Part shown: positions 40,037 to 55,569 of the stretch, piece by piece
Layout: each line of letters starts with the position of its first letter
Numbering within the stretch: the first letter of the stretch is position 1
Source: an uncultured delta proteobacterium
Lineage (GTDB): Bacteria; Desulfobacterota; RBG-13-43-22
Assembly: GCA_963843145.1 (NCBI GenBank)
Contig: CAWJJC010000010.1
Coordinates: forward strand, 160,001-224,000
Direction: 5' to 3'
Length of the DNA stretch: 64,000 nt
Notes under the pieces: generated by a model
Seen by the model: only the letters and a program-made list of their open reading frames with translations
The model's database searches: none
Told to the model about the DNA's origin: nothing
Made by a program: the position numbers and the translations under genes

Positions 40037-40106
40037 CTCAGAATTGGTTCATCCCTCGGGCCTCCTGGCTAATGGTCCGGATCCACAGGAGCTCCGTTTT
40101 TATCTA

Positions 40107-40430
40107 TTGACGCTTCGCCCTTTTGGGTGGGTACCCCCCCAGATCTGGTATGGCCGATGGGTCTCGGCGAAAGGGCTTTCCAAAGGTACTCCGGACTTCG
40201 AACCCGGGCCTAAATTACCAATTTTATTTGAAGCAGGCCCAAACTCAAAGGCTTTTGATGCTTCTTCGGCCGGCCCTGCCTCCGTGTAGATTTAGAAACA
40301 TGGGGGCCGGGTTAGAACCTATAAAGCAAGGTGGAAAACCCTTTCGCCGAGACCCATCGGCCACGAAGGCCTGATTTCAATCTAATCTACCAAATATTGT
40401 GGCCACCCACCCAAAAGGGCGAACAACCTA
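40107..40430. mobile_element. MITE-like element, family A copy 2 (inverted relative to 13599-13925)
   Basis: Same terminal and internal IRs with a colinear reverse-complement interior. Confidence 0.75.
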
Positions 40431-40678
40431 TTTATTCAGGCATACCAATAATTAGGGCCGTCTGTCAAACAAAGAAAACCGGAACCGTAGGCCTTATCAG
40501 TAAAAAATTCGAACACGATTATTGTCCTTAACATTTTAACCCTCAATAACTTATAATCGGGTTGGCTTTTTGTCGAAACCACAAATTGATCTATTAACGG
40601 GACGTTTCAGGCAGGGTGGGTCCCTGGAGGCCTTCTCCCGGATGAGGAAGAGGATTCTAACTAAGCGGAGGTTCCCTG

Positions 40679-41233
40679 ATGTTTTTAATCACTATTCTGG
40701 TACTGATCGTTGTCCTGGGTTTCCTGGTGATCGGCCCCTACAACGCCCTGGTCCGGGGAAGGAACGAGGTCAAAAACGCCTGGAGTTCGATCGACGTCCA
40801 GCTCAAGCGGCGCTATGATCTGATTCCCAATTTAATAGAAACGGTTAAGGGATATGCGGGCCACGAAAAAAAGACCCTGGAGGCGGTGGTCCAGGCCCGG
40901 CAGCAGGCCGTTAACTTTAGCGGGGGAGTGGAGGAACGGGCCCAGGTCGAAAATGTCCTGACCTCGGCCCTGCGTTCGCTCCTGGCCGTAGCCGAGGCCT
41001 ACCCGGACCTCAAGGCCAATCAAAACTTTCTGGCCCTGCAGGAGGAACTTTCCAACACCGAGAACAAAATCGGCTTCTCGCGACAGTACTATAACGATGC
41101 CGCCATGCGCTACAGGAACCGGGTGGAGATGTTCCCCAGCAATATCGTTGCCAATATTTTTGGTTTTCAGGCCGAGCCATTTTTTCAAGTGGAAGCCACC
41201 GCGGAACGCGTGGCTCCTCAAGTGAAATTTTAG
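40679..41233 (+). CDS. lemA: LemA family protein
   Basis: N-terminal TM, YNALV..AWS.IDVQLKRRYDLIPNL..EAYPDLKANQNF..ENKI..SRQYYN..FP.NI. Confidence 0.96.
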   Translation: MFLITILVLIVVLGFLVIGPYNALVRGRNEVKNAWSSIDVQLKRRYDLIPNLIETVKGYAGHEKKTLEAVVQARQQAVNFSGGVEERAQVENVLTSALRSLLAVAEAYPDLKANQNFLALQEELSNTENKIGFSRQYYNDAAMRYRNRVEMFPSNIVANIFGFQAEPFFQVEATAERVAPQVKF

Positions 41234-41250: not shown

Positions 41251-41520
41251 ATGGTTGAGACACTTCAGAATATCGGTTGGGCGGTGATTTTTTCAATAAT
41301 GGGCGGCCTGATCGGGATGGCGCTGGTCATCGCCTCATCGCTGATCCTGCCGTCGCTCATCGATCGCCTGACCCCCAACATTGACGAACAGAAGGAAATT
41401 GCCCGCGGCAATACCGCGGTGGGGGAATACTACGGGCGAGTCGTAGGCTCCGCCATCCTGGGGGTGAGCATCGTAGTTGCCGCCGCGGTATTGGGCGGGA
41501 TCCTCGCCGCCTTGCATTAA
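41251..41520 (+). CDS. Small two-TM membrane protein (DUF350-like)
   Basis: DRLTPNIDEQKEIARGNTAVG between two hydrophobic helices. Confidence 0.7.
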   Translation: MVETLQNIGWAVIFSIMGGLIGMALVIASSLILPSLIDRLTPNIDEQKEIARGNTAVGEYYGRVVGSAILGVSIVVAAAVLGGILAALH

Positions 41521-41550: not shown

Positions 41551-44500
41551 ATGAAACGGCTTGTCGGACTGACGGCGTTGTTTCTCCATTTGCTCAGTCC
41601 CACCCTGTCCTGGGCCCGAGGCGGGGGCGGCTGCCTGGAAGAGGGCACCCCGATTCGGACCCCAAAGGGGTCGGTGGCCATTGAAAAGCTGGTGGTGGGC
41701 GACCCGGTCTGGAGTCTATCCGCCGGCCAACTGCGGGAGGCCAAAGTCCGGGCGGTTATCCGGGTGCTCCCCCAAGAGATCCTGGAGATATCCGCCAGGG
41801 AGACCCGGTTACGGGTCACCCCCGAACATCCGCTGCTGGTGGCCCCCGGAACGTATCGCCAGGCAGGTTCCCTTTTCCCGGGGGATACGGTTTTCCTTTT
41901 CAGGGCTGGAGCGCTGAAGGCCGAGACGGTCCGGTCCATTGAACACCGGATAGCGAAACGCCCGGCGTATAATCTCTTGGTCAGCCCGGGCGGGACCTTT
42001 CTTTCCGGGGACCTGGTCCTGCACAATAAGGGCTGCTTCCTGCCCGATAGCCCGATCCTGCGGACGGACGGGACGGAGGTGATGATCAGTGCCGTGAAAC
42101 CGGGCGATGCCCTTTGGGCCTTCACGCCGGGCGGACACCTGGTACCCACCCGCACCCGGTCCGTGATTCGCCTCGAAGCGGATGAGTATGTCCTGATGAA
42201 GACCGATCGGGTCACGCTGCGGGTAACCCCGGAGCATCCTTTCTACGTCGGCCGGGGAACCTTCAAGACAGTCGAAGCCCTCAAACCGGGGGATACCGTC
42301 CTGGCTTTTGACGGGAAATGGCTGGCCAAACAGCATATTGTTTCCCTGGAGAGGGTCCGGGAACGGGTTTCGGTCTATAATCTCCAAACCGATCGGCCTC
42401 ATACCTTTTTCGTCAGCGGGGTGGCTGTCCACAATAAGGGCGGAGGATGTTTCCCGGCCGGAACCGGGATTGCCACTCCCCAGGGAGAGCGGTTCATCGA
42501 AGAATTGGCTGCCGGAGACGAAGTCCTTGTCCGTAGACCCGGAAGGGCGGACGGTTCGGAGCCGGGTGAAAACCATCCTGGTGAATAAAAGCCCCCTGCT
42601 GAAAATTAAGACCGCCAGGGGTTTCCTGCTGGCCACCGAGGACCACCCGATACGCGTGGGGAAAGATAGGTTTCGGCCGGCGGGGGATCTCCGCCCGGGA
42701 GAGCAAATCACCCGCTGGAATGAGGGCCGCCTGGCCGCCGACACGGTTCGGAGGATAGACTCCGGGCTTAAGGAAGGACTCGTCTTTAATCTCGAAGTTA
42801 CCGGTCCCCATACCTTCATTGCCGGCGGCGTCGTCGTTCACAATAAGGGGGGTGGTTGCCTTCCGGCGGGAACTCCCATCCAAACCCCTAAGGGTCAAAC
42901 CGCGATTGAAGAGCTGGCCCCAGGAAGCCCGGTACTGTCCGTTGATCCCGAAGGCCGGGTTATCCCTACCCACGTTGAGAAGATTTATAAGACCCGGGCA
43001 CTGCTTATCGAAGTCGTCACGGATGCCGGGTCCTTGCGAACCACTTCCGACCACCCGGTGGGCAGTCCCGGCGGGGCGTTCGTTCCCGCCGGGCGGCTGC
43101 GGCCGGGCCGGGAAGTGCTCTTCTGGAAGGACGGGGTTCTCCGAACGACCCGCGTCAAGCGGATCGTTTGGGAAGAGCACCCGCAACCGGTCTACAACCT
43201 CAGCGTAGGCTGGCCGAACACGTTTCTGGCCTCGGGGTTTCTGGCCCACAACAAGGGAGGGGGAGGATCCAGAAGCTCAAGTTCCGGTTCTTCCCACGGG
43301 AGGAGCGGCGGCAGCACGCTCCACCTGGGAGGATCTGATCCTTTCTTTCTTTTTTATCGTCTTCATTTTTATTCTTGTTCGTGATCGTCTTTGTCGCGAT
43401 CGCTTCCAAAGCTTTCCAAGAAAAAGAGCGAAAATCTCGACTTCGTTTACAGCCGCAATCAGATCGATCCCAAGGCACAAAAGACCGAGAAACTGTTGGC
43501 CTTCCTCAGCCGTCAGGATTCCTCCGTCTCCCCGGAAACGCTGCGCGATCAGGCGAAGGCCACGTTCCTCAAACTGCAGGAATGCTGGGGTAAACGGGAA
43601 TACGGGCCCATGGGGGCGCTGCTGGTACCGGACCTCTATACCCAGCACACGGCCCAGCTCCAGGGCTTGGCCCGGAACCACGAGATCAATCGGATCGACG
43701 ATCTGACAGTGGAGCGGATCGATCTGGTGAATGTCCGCTATACCGAAAAGGGGAATCAACGGGAGTTCACCGCTCTGATTACCGCTTCGGCCCGGGATTA
43801 TTATCTGGACGACCGCTCGGGAAAATTCCTCCGGGGCGATCGGACCCCGGCGCGTTTTCAGGAGTTCTGGACCTTCCAGTTGATGAACGGACGTTGGCTG
43901 CTGCGGGAGATCGAGCAGGCGGGGGAAGCGGATATCCTCAAGGATGACAACTTCGCCGAGATGCTGACCGAAGAAACGCTGAAGGGGATTTACGGAGAAG
44001 CATCCGTCCCCACAGGGGAAGCGGGGCCCTGGCTGGAGAAAGAGGTGGAACAGAAGGCCGGTCGCACCGACCGCTTGTTGAATTTTCTATCCCAGACCGA
44101 CAAGCTCTGGAATCGAAACCAGATGCTCGAACGGGCTCGTCAGGTTTTCCTGGATGTCTACCTGGCCCGGGAAACAGGCGATCCGGCCCGGGTCGCGGCC
44201 GACGACCTCTTTCCGAAGGTGGCCGAGGATTTGAAGACCCAGGTGGCTTACTGGAAGAATGAGGGCGTCGTCGTCGAATACCGGAATCTTTGTGTGCGCA
44301 AGGTGGAGCTGCTCCTGGTTCGTAATTCGGGGACAACACCCGGGATGAATATACGGTGCGGGTCAGCGCGCATGCCCAGCGGATGATCCGCAAAGGTGAC
44401 CAGTCCTTGAGCGCCCAGGACTACGTCACGCCCTTTGAAGAGTACTGGACTTTCGGCCGCCTGGAGGGACAGTGGAAACTGAAGGAAGTATTGCCTCCGG

Positions 44501-44595
44501 GCCAGGGGAAAAAGGCTGTTGGCCTGGAAAACGTGGACGAAGACAGCAACCCCGGGCAGCTCCAATGGTATTACCGGCAGCCCCGCGTCCGTTAG
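41551..44595 (+). CDS. Signal peptide - 4x tandem Hint (BIL/intein-like) - Gly/Ser linker - TM - 2x Tim44-like protein; frameshifts at ~42527, ~43320-43415 (several) and ~44330
   Basis: Hint1 41632-42027, Hint2 42034-42435, Hint3 42448-42844, Hint4 42857-43252, each C..TxxHP..(Y/F)NL..HN; Tim44-type ends FQEFWTF..WLL.EI and FEEYWTF..WKL.EV. Confidence 0.85.
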
Positions 44596-44707
44596 GGTGG
44601 TAGGCACATGGAATAAATGGCGTTTCGCCCTTTCGAACGGGTACCTCCTCCAAAAGGGCGAAGTGATTAGTTATAAACGGTCTCCAAAGAGTACCCACAT
44701 CGTATCG

Positions 44708-44792
44708 CGTCATTCCCGCAGCGCTTTTGAGCGGGAATCCAGGTTTTTCTCATGAAACACTGGATCCCCGATAAAGACATTCGGGGCTGACG
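44708..44792. repeat. REP/RPE-like double-hairpin element, family C
   Basis: CGTCATTCCCGC..GCGGGAATCC..GGATCCCCG..CGGGGCTGACG; inverted copies at 58614-58698 and 62226-62310, short form at 4956-4990. Confidence 0.8.
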
Positions 44793-44860
44793 AGAAATCA
44801 GAAGTAAAAACAATAAAGAGCCTGTTAATAAGTCCGGAATAGCCTTCTTTCAATGTTGAC

Positions 44861-44988
44861 AGGTTTGCAAAAAGTCCCGAACTGTCATCCTGAACAAAGT
44901 GAAGGATCTCGGATCTAGATGAAAAAACAAGATTCTTCGCATTCGCTTAGAATGACAAACTCTCTCTGACAGACTTTTTGCAAAACCA
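44861..44988. repeat. Nested palindromic element
   Basis: Outer IR GGTTTGCAAAAAGTC / GACTTTTTGCAAAACC around an inner TGTCATCCTGA..AGAATGACA element. Confidence 0.6.
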
Positions 44989-47900
44989 TTAATGCTCGAT
45001 CAAAGGCAAGTACAAATGCAACTTGCCATCAAAAGGGATATACTGAGGGGTCAGCACATCGAGGACGACTCCGCCCAGCAGTTGCGCGCCCGCGTAGCCC
45101 TCCACGGCAATCCGAGGTTTCCGGCCCTGGGAGATCGGAGATCCCGCCGCTATCTGCACGGTCACGGGGACCTGTTCACCCGGTACCAGGGTCGCCTGGG
45201 CGGGCGAGACCGTCACCATCCAGTCCGCGGGGAGGTCGATTCTACGATAACGCACATCGATAACGGCCGTCGCACTCCCCGGGTTGCTCACCGGGAAGGT
45301 TTCCGTGGTCTGATAGACCTGCACCATGGTGTTTCCACTCGCGGCCGCACCGATCGACGCCAACGCGGCGCCGGCCGAACCGGCGGTCACGGTCGGGACG
45401 AAGACCACGGGATGCAGGAACAGTTCGCTGACCTGCCGGAAGCTCGCCGAAAGATCCTGCAGCTTGGTGCGCGGGCTCTCGCCCAGGAGGGTGGGATCGG
45501 CCGCGATCAACTGCTGACGGCGGTTTTCAATCTGCGCGTCGCTGAACCCGGCGGCGTGGTAGTCATTGATATCGTCGGCGCTGAAGCCCGTCGTTTTCAA
45601 CTGGTCCTGGTAGGCGAGGACGGCGTCGAGCGGGATCGGGTTGTCGGGTACGGCCTCGCTGACCAGCAGGTTGGTGAAGGCGTCCACCTTGTCGGCGGCG
45701 GCCGCCAGGGAGGAAGCCAGGCGCAGTTTAAAGTACAGAAAGGCGTTCGCCTGGATGGAGGCCCACTGGAGGGAGTTGGCCTCCGACGCCCCGCCGTTGC
45801 GGTCGATTGAAACGGCGGCCCCGCCGCCGTCATAGACGAGATCCGCCAGGGCATTGGCCAGATCATTAAACGCCGCGGCCTCGGCCGGGGTTACCCCGGT
45901 CGTCGGGGTCGCGGTGATGATGGCCAGCCGGGCCGGGATTGTCACGGCCCGGTAATCCTGGCTGGGCGGGTCGCCGGTAAGAGAATTGGAAATATCCTGC
46001 GCCAGCGACAGCAGCATGTCGATCATGTGTCGGGCCAACCTGAGCGGGATTTTGAAGGGGGTCGTGTCAAAGGCTTTGTCGATAAAGGAGTTCATCTTCT
46101 CAAGGGAGTTCTTCGTCTTCTGCAGGCCCGATTTTTGCGGCGGGCTGACCAGTCCCGGTTGATAGATCTTGAGATTGCGCTGCCTCCGCCCCGAGGATCC
46201 CGCTAACAGCCGCGCGTTCAAGGCTCCCGAGCCGACTGAAGTGATACTGTACTGCACTTCGAAGCAATAGTGACCGGAAACCACCGGCGTCCACGGCAGG
46301 CTGAAGGTGCGCGTGCTGCCGGCCGGGATGACTTCGCCCGTAAAGGTCCCCAGGGGACCGAAGACCAGGCCGACCCCGGATTGGACAAAACCGAAGGTCA
46401 GGTCCACGGTGACGGGCTGGGGCAGCGGATTGGTCAGCGACGCACTGACCGTGGCCGGGACGCCCTGGATGGCCGGCAGCGGGGTCACGTCGATATCGTT
46501 GCCCAAATAGGGAGCCGGGGAATTGGGGAACAGTTCAGTCAGGTTGAGCGGGGTGGTGAAGGTGATTTTCGATTGGGGTGACATGGCGTATTCGCAGGCG
46601 CTGGCGGCATCCAACGTGGCCGTCACCAGGGCATCCCCGGTTCCGGCCGAGAGAAGGTAAGCCAGCGTTTTTCCGGTAATATCGGTTATGCCGCCATCGG
46701 TCACGGTCCCCAGATTCGATTTAAGCTTGACGGTGCGTCCGGGAAGGGGCGCGCCGTTGCCGTCGGTCAGGGTGAGGTCAAAATAGACCTTGGTCAGGTT
46801 ATCCGCCGGGGCAAACCAGCGCCGCGGCGTGAGGGTGATGACTGGAGCGTTGCTGAGGGGAAAGTCCACGTTGGCCACGGTGCTGGTGAGGAAGGGGACG
46901 AACAGCACCCCGGCCGTGACGTTATCGCCCGCGCCCGTCCCGCAGGCCGGCGCCAGGTCGGAATGGGGCCCGGTGGGGTCGCCCCACCAGTTGTTGGTGG
47001 CCAGGACGGCGGAGTTGGTGGTCGCGTTGCGCACACCGTACAGGGCGTTACCGGTAATCTGGCTTTCCAGGACCGATCCGCCGGCGTTGCTGTCGAAGCG
47101 CACCCCGTCCTTGGAGCTGTTGCGGATGATGCTGTGCCGGGCCACCAGCATCCCGTTCGAGAGATAGATATTGGCCCCCAGGCGTCGCTCCCCCCGTACT
47201 CGACCGTGGTGTACTCCAGTTGGGCCGTCGCCGGCTGCGTTCCGCCGAAAACCACCAGCCCGCGCCAGGAACCGGGACTTTGGGTCTGACCGGTCAACAG
47301 CACCGGCTCGGTGGCCGTCCCCATTACCTGGAGGCCCCCGCCGATCGCCAGAAACCCTGTGGCGGTGAACTTCAAGGTGCTGCCCGCTTCGATGGTCAAG
47401 GTATTGCCCAAGAGGTTGGCCACCCCCGAGTCTATCAGATAGGGAATGCCCGGATTGGCCCAGTGCCGTTGGCCGGTTACGGTGGTCACCGTGGACACCA
47501 GCACGGCATTGCTCCCATTACCGCCGGCAGTTAGGCTGCTCAGCTTAAGGTCCCCTGAGGGTGCGTTGAACTGGAGCGCATTTTGACCGTTGCCGGTAAA
47601 GCTGGAGGAGCGGATTTCGAAGCCGCTTCGGTAAGTGCCATAGACGCCGTTTCCGGCGCTGCTGTTGATCGCCGAGTGTAAAATGGTGAGCACGGCCCGG
47701 TCCGCGTAGACGGCCGCCCCGAAGGAACCGCTGATTCCGCCATACTCGATGGTCGCATACTCGAAGGTTGCGGAAGCGTTGGGCGCCCCATCCACGTTGA
47801 TCCCTCCCCATGAACCGGGGGATGCGGTCACGCCGGTAAAAGTAATCGGGTTGGCGGGTGACCCGATCGCCACCAGGTTGCCCTGAACATAGAGTGTGCC

Positions 47901-48152
47901 TGGAGCGGTGAATTGTACGGTCACACCCGGATCGATGGTTAGCGTGACCCCACCGGGGATCGTGGCCCCGCCCGCGCAGACATCGTAGGGACTACCGGCT
48001 GGAGTCCAGGTGGTGGTGACGAGCGATCCGCAGATGGCAGTCGGTGCTGCCTGGGCGGTTTGAATCATTTGGAGATGTTCGATCAAGAAGCATCCGATCA
48101 GGACCAGGATACCCAAGAAACAAGCCTTTAATCCAGTCATAAAATGAACCAC
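44989..48152 (-). CDS. Large secreted protein (right-handed beta-helix, Big_1/Ig-like, helical and Ig domains) ending in LYLPLI; frameshift at ~47170
   Basis: Signal peptide; TWTPAGSPY, TLTIDPG, PGSWGGI/PGSWRGL, NNWWGD..GP; ORFs 46794-48152 and 44989-47151 join. Confidence 0.75.
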
Positions 48153-48794
48153 CTCAACTTCGCCTGAAATAAAGAGTGCGATCCTCTTATGTAGGTTGAG
48201 CTATTCACCAGGGGAATTCTCCCGGGCAGCATTATTAGCCCGGAGGTCTCCATTCCTATCCTCTACGCTTGTCCGGTATAATTTTATGCATTGAATAAAA
48301 AAGGATAAATAGGGTAAATACTGCATTTTTAAGATGGAAACACAGTATTTTATGAAACAGGTTAGCCCCTAGTAATCCGGGAGGTAGCCTCCGGATAAAC
48401 TGGAACAGAGCCGACAGATGCGCTTTCGAGGAATATATGCGCGGACTGGCGCGGCCGGATGCTGCCGGGGCCCTCTTTTAGGTCATGGGCCGGAAGATTG
48501 AGGCTGGTTAGGATATTTAGAAGGAAATTAGGCCGGGGAGAACTTCCTCGCGGATAATGGAAAGCCAAAGGCAAAGGGCCGAAAGAGACCGCAAGTCGTT
48601 TAGCGCCGGAAAGATTATCCGTCCCCTACACCAGCCGGGACCATTCATCCGGTCGGCCTGACGAAATGGAATGTATTTCTTCTAAATTCCATGCAGAGGG
48701 GTCCCGGCCTCAACCTGCCCCGGCGCCTCATCACGGATCAGCTTCTCACTTTTCTCCTCCGCGGCCCGGCCCACACGCATTGGTCCTTTCGTTA

Positions 48795-53842: not shown

Positions 53843-55556
53843 TTATTTCACCGGGGAGGCATCCCACTCCCCTTCCCGTCGCAATTGTTCCACGATGGGC
53901 TGGGCCAGCTTCTGCAGGGCCAGCTTGTCCACTTTGGTGCTGCGGGTGATTGGGAATTCCCGGCCGGCGGGCCAGAGCTCCACATGCTGGGGCCGCTTGT
54001 AGGAGGCGATTTCCCGGCAGTGGGCCAGCACTTCCTCGGCGGTCAGCGCCGCCCCCGGGAGGAGGCGCACAAAGGCAAAGATCCCCTCGTCAAAAAGCCG
54101 ATGTTCCAGACCCACCACTTCGGCCACTTCCACCCCGGGCAGCCGGCCGATGTGGGCTTCGACCTCATCCGGAAAAACGTTATAACCTTTTTGTTTGATC
54201 ACGAACTTCCGCCTCCCGGCCAGAAAGAGGGCCCGGTAGGTTCCCAGGTTTTTGAAGGAGCCGAGGTCCCCGGTATAGAGGATCCCTTCTCTGGAAATGG
54301 TTTTGGCCGTTTCCTGAGGCTGGTTGTAGTAGCCGAGGAACACCAGGGGTGGATGGTAGCAGATCTCCCCGATCTCCCCTTCAGGGAGTTCCTCCCCGGC
54401 GCTGCCGTCCGGGTTCATGGGCCTGCGGACCGTAACGGCCGCCAGGTCGGGGAAGGCCCGCCCCACCTGGCCGACCATTTCCTCCGGCGGAATATCCTTC
54501 GGGGTAAAGGTGGCGAAGCCGGCATTTTCGGTCATGCCGATACCGGTGCCGAAATGGGGAGCCATGCCGGAGAGTTTTTTCAGGAAGGCCAGATCCACCG
54601 CCGAACCGGCATAGGCCACGAAGCGCAGGCTGCTCAGATCGAGACCGGGATAGTCGGGATGATTCCAGAGCATCCGGTACTGGGTGGGGATCTGCCCGAG
54701 GACATTGACCCGGTGCTTGGGAATGGCCTCCAGGGTCATCTTGACATCAAAGATGCGCAACAGGACGGTCGTGCCCCCCAGGGCCATGGTGGTCATGAAA
54801 CATTCGGTCAGACAGCCCACGTGGCTGGGAGGCAGGTTGATCAGGATACGCAGGTCGCTGCCCAGTCCCACGTCCAATCCCCGGGCCAGGATCTCGTTCT
54901 GGGTGATGATGTTCTCGTGGCAGAGCAGGGCCGGTTTGGGATCGCCGGTTGTCCCGGTGGTATAGATGATCAAGGCCGGGGTCCGGGGTTTGACCTGTCG
55001 ATAAGCCTTTTCCAGCCTCCGGGTGAAGAGGTCCTTGATTTTCAAAGCCAGGAGCTTCTTCTTGTCCATCATCCCGGTGATCGACCAGGCCCCGTCCAGG
55101 AGTTCCCCGGGCTTCGGGTCGGCCGTAAACTGCACCAGAAATTCGACGGAAGGGACAGTGCGCTTTTACCGCTTGGCCGACCTGGCGGAAATCTCGGACC
55201 GGGGTCTGTCCCAGGAAGAAAAAGACCTTGGGGTTGATTTTGTTCAGGTCCCGGACGACTTCTTCATCCTTGAGGCGCAGGTCCAGCGGGGAAACAATGG
55301 CTCCGATCTTAAAACAGGCGTACATCAGCATCAGGTGTTCCGGAATCAAAACCAGTTGGGTGGCCACGCGGTCTCCCTCCCGGACACCCATATCCAGCAG
55401 ACGCAGGGCGAAGAAGTCGATCAGGGAAAGAAACCGTTTATAGGATACGGTTTTGCCGTCCTCGTGCTGGATCATGGCCGGTTTATCCGGAAAGGTTTTC
55501 GCCCAGTGCTCGATATAGGAATTGACCAAGGGTAATCTAACAAAAGGGGTGGTCAT
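53843..55556 (-). CDS. Acyl-CoA synthetase (AMP-forming), frameshift at ~55150
   Basis: YTTGTTGDPK, GMTE, YTGDLG, GYNVFP; N-terminal part in ORF 54747-55556. Confidence 0.85.
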
Positions 55557-55569
55557 GTTTCCTCCTTAT

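Follow-up and report, generated by a model that had tools for sequence, protein, structure and literature searches.

A gene at 41551–44595 (+) in a 64,000-nucleotide stretch of DNA from an uncultured delta proteobacterium (the window, meaning the whole stretch that was analyzed) encodes a predicted exported membrane protein in which four Hint domains stand in tandem in front of a membrane helix and two Tim44-like domains. The gene belongs to a Hint-Tim44 family that is conserved and widespread in bacteria and that is undescribed, being present in databases under automatic names only. The Hints are best read as similar to A-type bacterial intein-like (BIL) domains in sequence. The reading favored here, with some reserve, is that they form a periplasmic autoprocessing array that is carried on a membrane module linked to DUF350 and LemA proteins and is shed after export. 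Hint domains are known as inteins, hedgehog processing domains, BIL domains, and pre-toxin modules, and, to our knowledge, each known Hint type acts on a folded neighboring domain. Here, up to six complete catalytic Hints lie back to back on a conserved membrane protein with only Lys-Gly between them. What is the purpose of a self-processing domain that has no cargo to release?

The layout of the gene was established from the listing of open reading frames (ORFs), three-frame translation, and alignment with orthologues. Every feature lies at the position given in the original prediction, which had been made from the sequence alone. A signal peptide ending in SWA and an RGGGG N-extein occupy 41551–41631 (MKRLVGLTALFLHLLSPTLSWA|RGGGG, with the bar at the junction). 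Four Hint units of 132–134 aa, joined by KG or KGGG, follow: Hint 1 (type 1) at 41632–42027, Hint 2 (type 2) at 42034–42435, Hint 3 (type 3) at 42448–42844, and Hint 4 (type 4) at 42857–43252. Cys1 comes first in each unit, block B reads TPEH, TPEH, TEDH, and TSDH in Hints 1–4, block F reads YNL, YNL, FNL, and YNL, and all four units finish in His-Asn followed by Lys-Gly. A Gly/Ser linker, the membrane helix, and a KKK motif lie at 43253–43420, where three frame shifts fall in T- and A-rich runs. Tim44-like domain 1 lies at 43505–43918 (residues 39–176 of the translated piece; PF04280 at 59.6 bits, above the cut-off) and Tim44-like domain 2 at 44038–44577.

The earlier calls of Hint and Tim44 domains were borne out by profile hidden Markov models (HMMs). 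On both Hint-bearing pieces, Pfam reports Hint_2 (1.2e-20), PT-HINT (7.7e-16), Intein_splicing (4.3e-12 and 9.1e-11), and Hint, and NCBIfam reports the N-terminal and C-terminal regions of inteins. Pfam Tim44 matches the piece at 43391–44386 in two stretches with an E-value of 3e-21 (76.5 bits against a gathering threshold of 29.6), of which the second corresponds to Tim44-like domain 2. The TimA models NF033778 and NF033779 are not reached (30.3 and 33.9 bits against an NCBIfam cut-off of 80). A lipoprotein reading of the GGGG-C junction was considered and rejected: there is no Leu, Val, or Ile at -3, the Cys lies six residues beyond an Ala-X-Ala-type site, and Gly-Cys junctions of the same kind occur further inside the protein.

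How widely is this architecture distributed? A strong orthologue was found in 11 of 41 related genomes including the window's own, all within one family, and it is intact in seven of the 10 other genomes that carry the gene. Three of the intact orthologues are 1012 aa long with four Hints (L017:4608-7643:-, L018:1827-4862:-, and L019:3767-6802:+), and four are 877–879 aa long with three Hints. When 5.8 billion proteins were searched, 978 of the 8000 that were scored reached E<=1e-3. Every one of the top 120 contains both Hint and Tim44 Pfam domains. Among the automatic names that these 120 bear are 'Hint domain-containing', 'TIM44-like domain-containing', and 'polymorphic toxin-type HINT'. Exhaustive scanning without a profile yielded 230 cluster representatives at E<=1e-30, and 308 loci were confirmed in species genomes. 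The locus counts given below rest on the best 80 of these 308, each of which has at least one Hint, and loci are assigned to phyla by record name. Records in the best 80 are named Syntrophales, Desulfarculales, Desulfobacterales, and Geobacteraceae, and also Nitrospirota, Planctomycetota, Verrucomicrobiota, Lentisphaerae, Kiritimatiellaeota, Auribacterota, Terriglobia, and Anaerolineales. Cultured Legionella carry the family as well: Legionella massiliensis is in the best 80, and further cultured Legionella species were found elsewhere. The original prediction had stated that no described system of this architecture was known. Likewise, literature searches, including ones aimed at it and with subscription papers and supplements outside their reach, turned up no published description of a tandem-Hint/Tim44 architecture. 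Within the same scope, no paper was found that joins Tim44, Hint domain, and bacterial, or Tim44-like with LemA, and the literature on TimA/Tim44 yielded nothing functional.

The number of Hints was tabulated across the family and ranges from one to six, rare Hint-less forms aside. Among 128 complete-looking proteins, four Hints (70 proteins) and three Hints (45) are the usual numbers, with the remainder having none (1), one (3), two (6), five (1), or six (2). In the best 80 loci the counts are one (2), two (12), three (47), four (17), and five (2). The modules fall into four types that are 27–39% identical to one another, and their order is kept. In 127 proteins, the order is 1234 in 66, 123 in 31, and 124 in 10. 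Order 123 is found in 28 of the 80 loci, spread over many phyla, and order 1234 in seven, all from records titled delta proteobacterium, Deltaproteobacteria, or Smithella. Whole modules can be missing; the same-genus genome G002 lacks exactly module 4, with its orthologue (L024) having 64 nt in place of window 42863–43342. Conservation is highest for type 2, which is also the sole Hint in most single-Hint forms. Motifs shared by Hints 1 and 2 and by Hints 3 and 4 had earlier been taken as a sign of successive duplications. This interpretation does not hold in that form. Because the types are only 27–39% identical and their order is maintained in records of several phyla, the duplications are old, and the common short motifs do not mark recent copies.

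The residues required for Hint chemistry are nearly invariant. Among 636 full HMM-defined units from 232 proteins, Cys1 is present in 632, Gly at -1 in 620, the terminal His-Asn in 635, Lys at +1 in 627, and Gly at +2 in 619. The block-B Thr and His are each conserved at 99.6% in 446 units. Only 12 of the 636 units are without Cys1, His-Asn, or Lys+1, and at least seven of these belong to Tim44-less or truncated proteins. In other words, the retention of catalytic residues noted for the four window Hints extends to the whole family. The units are only 125–142 aa long, in keeping with the earlier observation that they hold no homing endonuclease. Internal linkers consist of Lys followed by one to seven Gly: KG (124), KGG (27), KGGG (135), and longer Gly runs (33). 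The Cys content is about one per Hint, and W21, R23, G24–G27, and C28 are invariant in 71 orthologues. The proposal that the Hints are under selection also found support. In four orthologue pairs, the ratio of nonsynonymous to synonymous substitution rates (dN/dS) is 0.105–0.371 for the Hints and 0.071–0.130 for the Tim44 domains, with some dS values saturated and the G001/L050 pair left out since the L050 gene was mis-extracted. These values indicate purifying selection, and Hint 2 has the lowest among the Hints (0.115–0.203).

Which known Hint type do these units resemble most? The closest solved relative in sequence is a BIL domain of Clostridium thermocellum (2lwy; E 5.8e-09). The Hints and 2lwy have an Asn at the block-F position at which the RecA intein has an Asp. 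The top Foldseek matches are Tetrahymena BIL2 (E 4.6e-09), mini-inteins, and 2lwy, with target TM-scores of 0.75–0.86. Hedgehog (1at0) ranks 31st, and the C-terminal domain of yeast Tim44 ranks 45th (E 2.6e-05).

The proposed topology agrees with several independent signals, namely the signal peptide, the distribution of positive charge, and a fold model. Lys plus Arg averages 2.3 before the membrane helix and 6.6 after it, and the Tim44 part is predicted to be cytoplasmic because of this bias. An AlphaFold model of the 1012-aa orthologue (mean pLDDT 75.5, pTM 0.34) has four beta-rich domains, disorder at 568–589, a helix at 591–619, and two helix-plus-sheet domains, with helices and strands of the second Tim44-like domain at 828–1007. 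The linker in front of the helix is 48% Ser and 29% Gly.

Homologues that lack the array provide a view of the underlying protein. Hint-less proteins with two Tim44 domains are rare. Two such loci were seen (L106:3698-5290 and L109), and in them the signal peptide and RGGGG run directly into a Gly-rich tail, followed by the helix and the Tim44 pair. The L106 locus, from a record named Candidatus Brocadiia (L106:3698-7989), offers both forms side by side in nature: a Hint-less two-Tim44 gene is directly followed by a DUF350 gene and a two-Hint copy of the protein. A Hint-less paralogue of 331 aa was also noted in the window's own genome (contig C10, L002:955-1950, outside the window). Its signal peptide is followed by RAGGG, ~100 aa of Gly/Ser-rich tail, a membrane helix, RKK, and a single Tim44 domain, and it has no DUF350 neighbor. 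Because the Hint-less homologues and the paralogue share the tail, the Hint array is seen to sit in the exported, Gly-rich tail of a more ancient type of protein, yet it is almost always retained.

The array-bearing gene is the last of a three-gene cassette in the window. The first gene encodes a LemA family protein (40679–41233, +; PF04011 at 1.4e-60) and the second an 89-aa small membrane protein of the DUF350 (YjfL) family (41251–41520, +; PF03994 at 3e-06 and 27.8 bits against a cut-off of 26). Of the 72 loci with sufficient flanking sequence, 69 have a DUF350 gene as the immediate upstream neighbor in the same orientation. A LemA gene is found upstream, again in the same orientation, in 42 of 69 loci, and also in relatives within the window's bacterial family. 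Genes beyond DUF350 and LemA differ between loci. The DUF350 proteins have a mean column identity of 70% over 65 sequences. A complex prediction of DUF350 with the helix and Tim44 part (residues 572–1012), which scored 0.00 in two runs made without controls, yielded no verdict and weighs on neither side of the question of binding. DUF350/YjfL is placed in PspA and polyamine envelope-stress operons in the part of PMC11237479 that was available, and LemA proteins are reported to remodel membranes in the accessible portion of a 2026 preprint (10.64898/2026.10.21.759321). The ~640 bases before LemA (40037–40678) hold only short overlapping ORFs (66–98 aa), without an Rfam match, and a sigma-70-like promoter candidate (40528–40557, +; TTAACA, an 18-nt spacer, and TATAAT), which matches the consensus at 11 of 12 positions and is identified by consensus match only. 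Downstream of the cassette, a large beta-helix/Big_1 protein is spread over two overlapping frames on the opposite strand (44989–48200, −) and is probably encoded by one frameshifted gene. The stretch 44593–48784 as a whole is absent from G002.

These observations fit a model in which the protein is exported by its Sec signal peptide and displays a head-to-tail Hint array in the periplasm. One helix would anchor the protein in the membrane with the two Tim44-like domains on the cytoplasmic side, and the gene would be co-transcribed with that of the DUF350 protein and, where LemA is found, with that of LemA. Each Hint would convert the peptide bond between Gly(-1) and Cys1 into a thioester with the help of the block-B Thr and His, and would cut its own C-terminal Asn-Lys bond via succinimide formation. 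No Cys, Ser, or Thr is available at +1 because Lys follows Asn. PMC7664689 reports that BIL domains lack the +1 nucleophile and yield chiefly N- and C-cleaved products, and the same type of cleavage at both ends would be the main outcome here. Unit by unit, the array would be shed until only the helix and the Tim44 pair remained behind a short tail of Lys, Gly, and Ser, a product that would resemble the rare natural Hint-less homologues. On this view, the array may act as a periplasmic pro-region or switch that removes itself from a membrane-associated module, possibly only under certain conditions; conditional control is suggested by a lone reactive Cys and a His-rich site. The cleavage itself, any trigger for it, and the job of the Tim44/DUF350/LemA module are the conjectural parts of this model.

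Several points weigh against it. Purifying selection acts on whole Hints and on their order and is not confined to the catalytic residues, and Hint-less forms are limited to two loci; neither fits well with a pro-region that is merely discarded. Lys+1 and Gly-1 are invariant yet unneeded for simple cleavage, a sign that more chemistry may be involved. In organisms with disulfide-forming systems, a lone Cys in the periplasm might become oxidized. The Tim44/DUF350 'module' is defined by linkage alone. Finally, the window copy carries five indels, and this particular copy may be inactive.

Is the window copy a pseudogene? As had been flagged in the original prediction, the gene is not one open frame. 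Compared with intact orthologues, it has one extra base near 42525–42529 (in Hint 3), three shifts at about 43310–43415, and one missing base near 44327 (in Tim44-like domain 2), and the five indels taken together leave the reading frame intact overall. The breaks are concentrated in this gene because its flanks are nearly free of indels against G002: five were counted in the ~3-kb gene, 0 in 1535 nt of one flank, and 1 in 4047 nt of the other. Decay of the window copy, whatever the family does elsewhere, would account for this concentration, and the orthologues in G002, G003, and G016 (L024, L026, and L025) are likewise broken, by single-base indels at other bases. Such decay is nevertheless somewhat unlikely. 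The in-frame pieces of the window copy contain no stops, and their dN/dS against the nearest relative, G002, is 0.075–0.239. Among public contigs that are 90–99% identical, one restores the frame by lacking a base at 42525, and two do so by carrying an extra base at 44327/44328. The contigs leave 43065–43397, with three of the five breaks, uncovered, and in no public run did the share of sampled words exceed 0.20. These three middle breaks are the ones that sit in T- and A-rich runs. Elsewhere in the window, an AMP-binding enzyme gene (53846–55565, −) is split over two overlapping frames by a frameshift, with Pfam positions 2–100 on 54750–55565 and positions 153–384 on 53846–55165. Since this gene is split in the same way, the assembly carries indel errors elsewhere too. 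For these reasons, the window breaks are considerably more probably artefacts or very recent events than the marks of a true pseudogene.

Programmed frameshifting was considered as well, since the breaks of G002 and G016, and those of the window and G016, lie within about 10 codons of each other. It was ruled out, as the breaks are independent single-base indels at different bases with no common slippery site. Rfam at gathering thresholds gave no match in the whole window; thus, no RNA element explains the frame changes.

Stacking of Hints with almost no extein between them had been noted as a departure from the usual single Hint, but it is not unique to this protein. With a Tim44-less relative as the query, 725 proteins were retrieved at E<=1e-10. 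Among 116 new proteins from this search, seven have Tim44 and 109 do not, and the 109 contain two to nine Hints with a median gap of 2 aa (172 of 186 gaps are 10 aa or shorter). The +1 residue in Tim44-less arrays is Lys in 149 units and Arg in 87. Besides the 109, found among P0271–P0386, Tim44-less back-to-back Hint proteins include P0228, P0248, P0240, and P0264. Some of the Tim44-less array proteins are named Thermoplasmatales, Nanoarchaeota, or Micrarchaeia, and two end in Pro- and Cys-rich tails. The Tim44-less proteins appear to form a wider unnamed poly-Hint class, found in uncultured bacteria and archaea.

The main rival to shedding is ligation. In this scheme, an amine resolves the Gly-thioester, and the Hints splice out or pass the upstream pieces to a target. 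The candidate amines are the alpha-amine freed at Lys+1 (BIL-type splicing that needs no nucleophilic side chain), the epsilon-amine of Lys+1 (isopeptide formation), and a lysine of the cell wall or of another protein. The near-invariance of Lys+1 and Gly-1 in the 636 units is what ligation would lead one to expect, and selection on whole modules leaves room for it. The Hint-less homologues run RGGGG straight into the Gly-rich tail, as a spliced product would. Furthermore, section 2.4 of PMC8616854, in the part of that article drawn on here, describes an isopeptide bond between the epsilon-amine of a lysine and a C-terminus that is made by BIL2, the best fold match, and speaks of a dispensing platform. 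However, the presence of either Lys or Arg at +1 in Tim44-less arrays points to a basic residue and not to an amine nucleophile. The linker length ranges from KG to KGGGGGGG, no target is evident, and the mainly cleaved products reported for BIL domains also speak against ligation, which is considered unlikely. One elaboration, which is more doubtful still, is that of a multi-shot thioester device: the Hints would charge Gly-ended segments, and Lys+1 or an envelope lysine would make a peptide or isopeptide bond, all coupled to the Tim44/DUF350/LemA module. If this were true, periplasmic parts would be spliced, concatenated, or covalently anchored without ATP. Such a device would be the exported bacterial equivalent of ciliate BIL2, which forms isopeptide bonds, and would couple an envelope event to a cytoplasmic module.

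A different possibility is that the Hints are catalytically silent structural repeats that form a periplasmic stalk or binding module on the membrane protein. Purifying selection over whole domains and the conserved order suit such a role, and the fold model, with its low pTM, looks like beads on a string. This is improbable given that the catalytic set, including Cys1, the block-B His, and the terminal Asn, none of which has an obvious structural need, is nearly invariant and that degenerate units are almost absent. A polymorphic-toxin system, in which PT-HINT releases a toxic cargo, or a selfish mobile intein would agree with the PT-HINT and Intein_splicing matches and with names such as 'polymorphic toxin-type HINT domain-containing protein', but is highly improbable and already contradicted by the conserved Tim44 pair in place of a variable toxin behind the membrane helix, the absence of a homing endonuclease and of a +1 Cys, Ser, or Thr, and the conservation of module order across phyla. 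A search with the PADLOC defence families gave nothing above 19.2 bits, with two weak homing-endonuclease-model matches on the Hint C-terminus (19.2 and 13.1 bits), and gave no match on LemA or DUF350.

An answer to the question of what the array is for could add timed shedding or amine ligation in the periplasm to the known repertoire of protein chemistry. Bacterial Tim44-like and DUF350 proteins, too, might gain their first functional handle from it.

How does the array compare with known Hint systems? A-type BIL domains come closest. Both have Cys1, the block-B TxxH, a C-terminal His-Asn, and no Cys, Ser, or Thr at +1, and both occur in exported proteins. In contrast to A-type BIL domains, the array consists of one to six stacked units with Lys-Gly linkers of 2–8 residues, a conserved order, and an invariant Lys+1. 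The available text of PMC7765530 describes BILs as found in hypervariable regions of non-conserved proteins. That setting is not the one seen here, where a conserved host protein keeps its modules in a conserved order from phylum to phylum, with dN/dS values of 0.07–0.37. The BUBL loci of ciliates, which contain BIL2 (PDB 6y75/6tmm), are similar in having repeated BIL domains in one polypeptide and in providing the top fold match. A Gly-ended upstream segment and lysine chemistry are also described for them in section 2.4 of PMC8616854, as far as its available text goes. However, BUBL units are spaced by folded ubiquitin-like cargo and are eukaryotic and cytosolic, whereas the present array has no cargo and is bacterial, exported, and membrane-anchored.

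The other Hint types are more distant. Pre-toxin HINT domains of polymorphic toxins (PF07591) share the Pfam match, and autoproteolytic release is presumed for PF07591, but no toxin tail is present here; the array is followed by a linker, a membrane helix, and the conserved Tim44 pair. Unlike a canonical (class 1) intein, the array has Lys at +1 and sits in a Gly-rich exported tail and not at a conserved host site. Unlike Hedgehog-type Hog domains, which have a signaling domain in front of the Hint and a sterol-recognition region behind it, the units of 125–142 aa abut via Lys-Gly linkers, and hedgehog 1at0 stands far down the fold ranking. The C-terminal part resembles Tim44 and bacterial TimA-type proteins in its above-cut-off PF04280 match and in its fold match to the yeast Tim44 C-terminal domain. 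It differs from them in the two tandem Tim44-like domains, the Hint array, the DUF350 link, and scores below the TimA cut-offs. In how it may work, the protein recalls RsgI and FecR, which, in the partial accounts available, combine a self-cleaving periplasmic part, one helix, and a cytoplasmic effector part. Their folds and chemistry are unrelated, and according to the same accounts they are anti-sigma factors with a known sigma partner, whereas no sigma factor is linked to the Hint-Tim44 gene.

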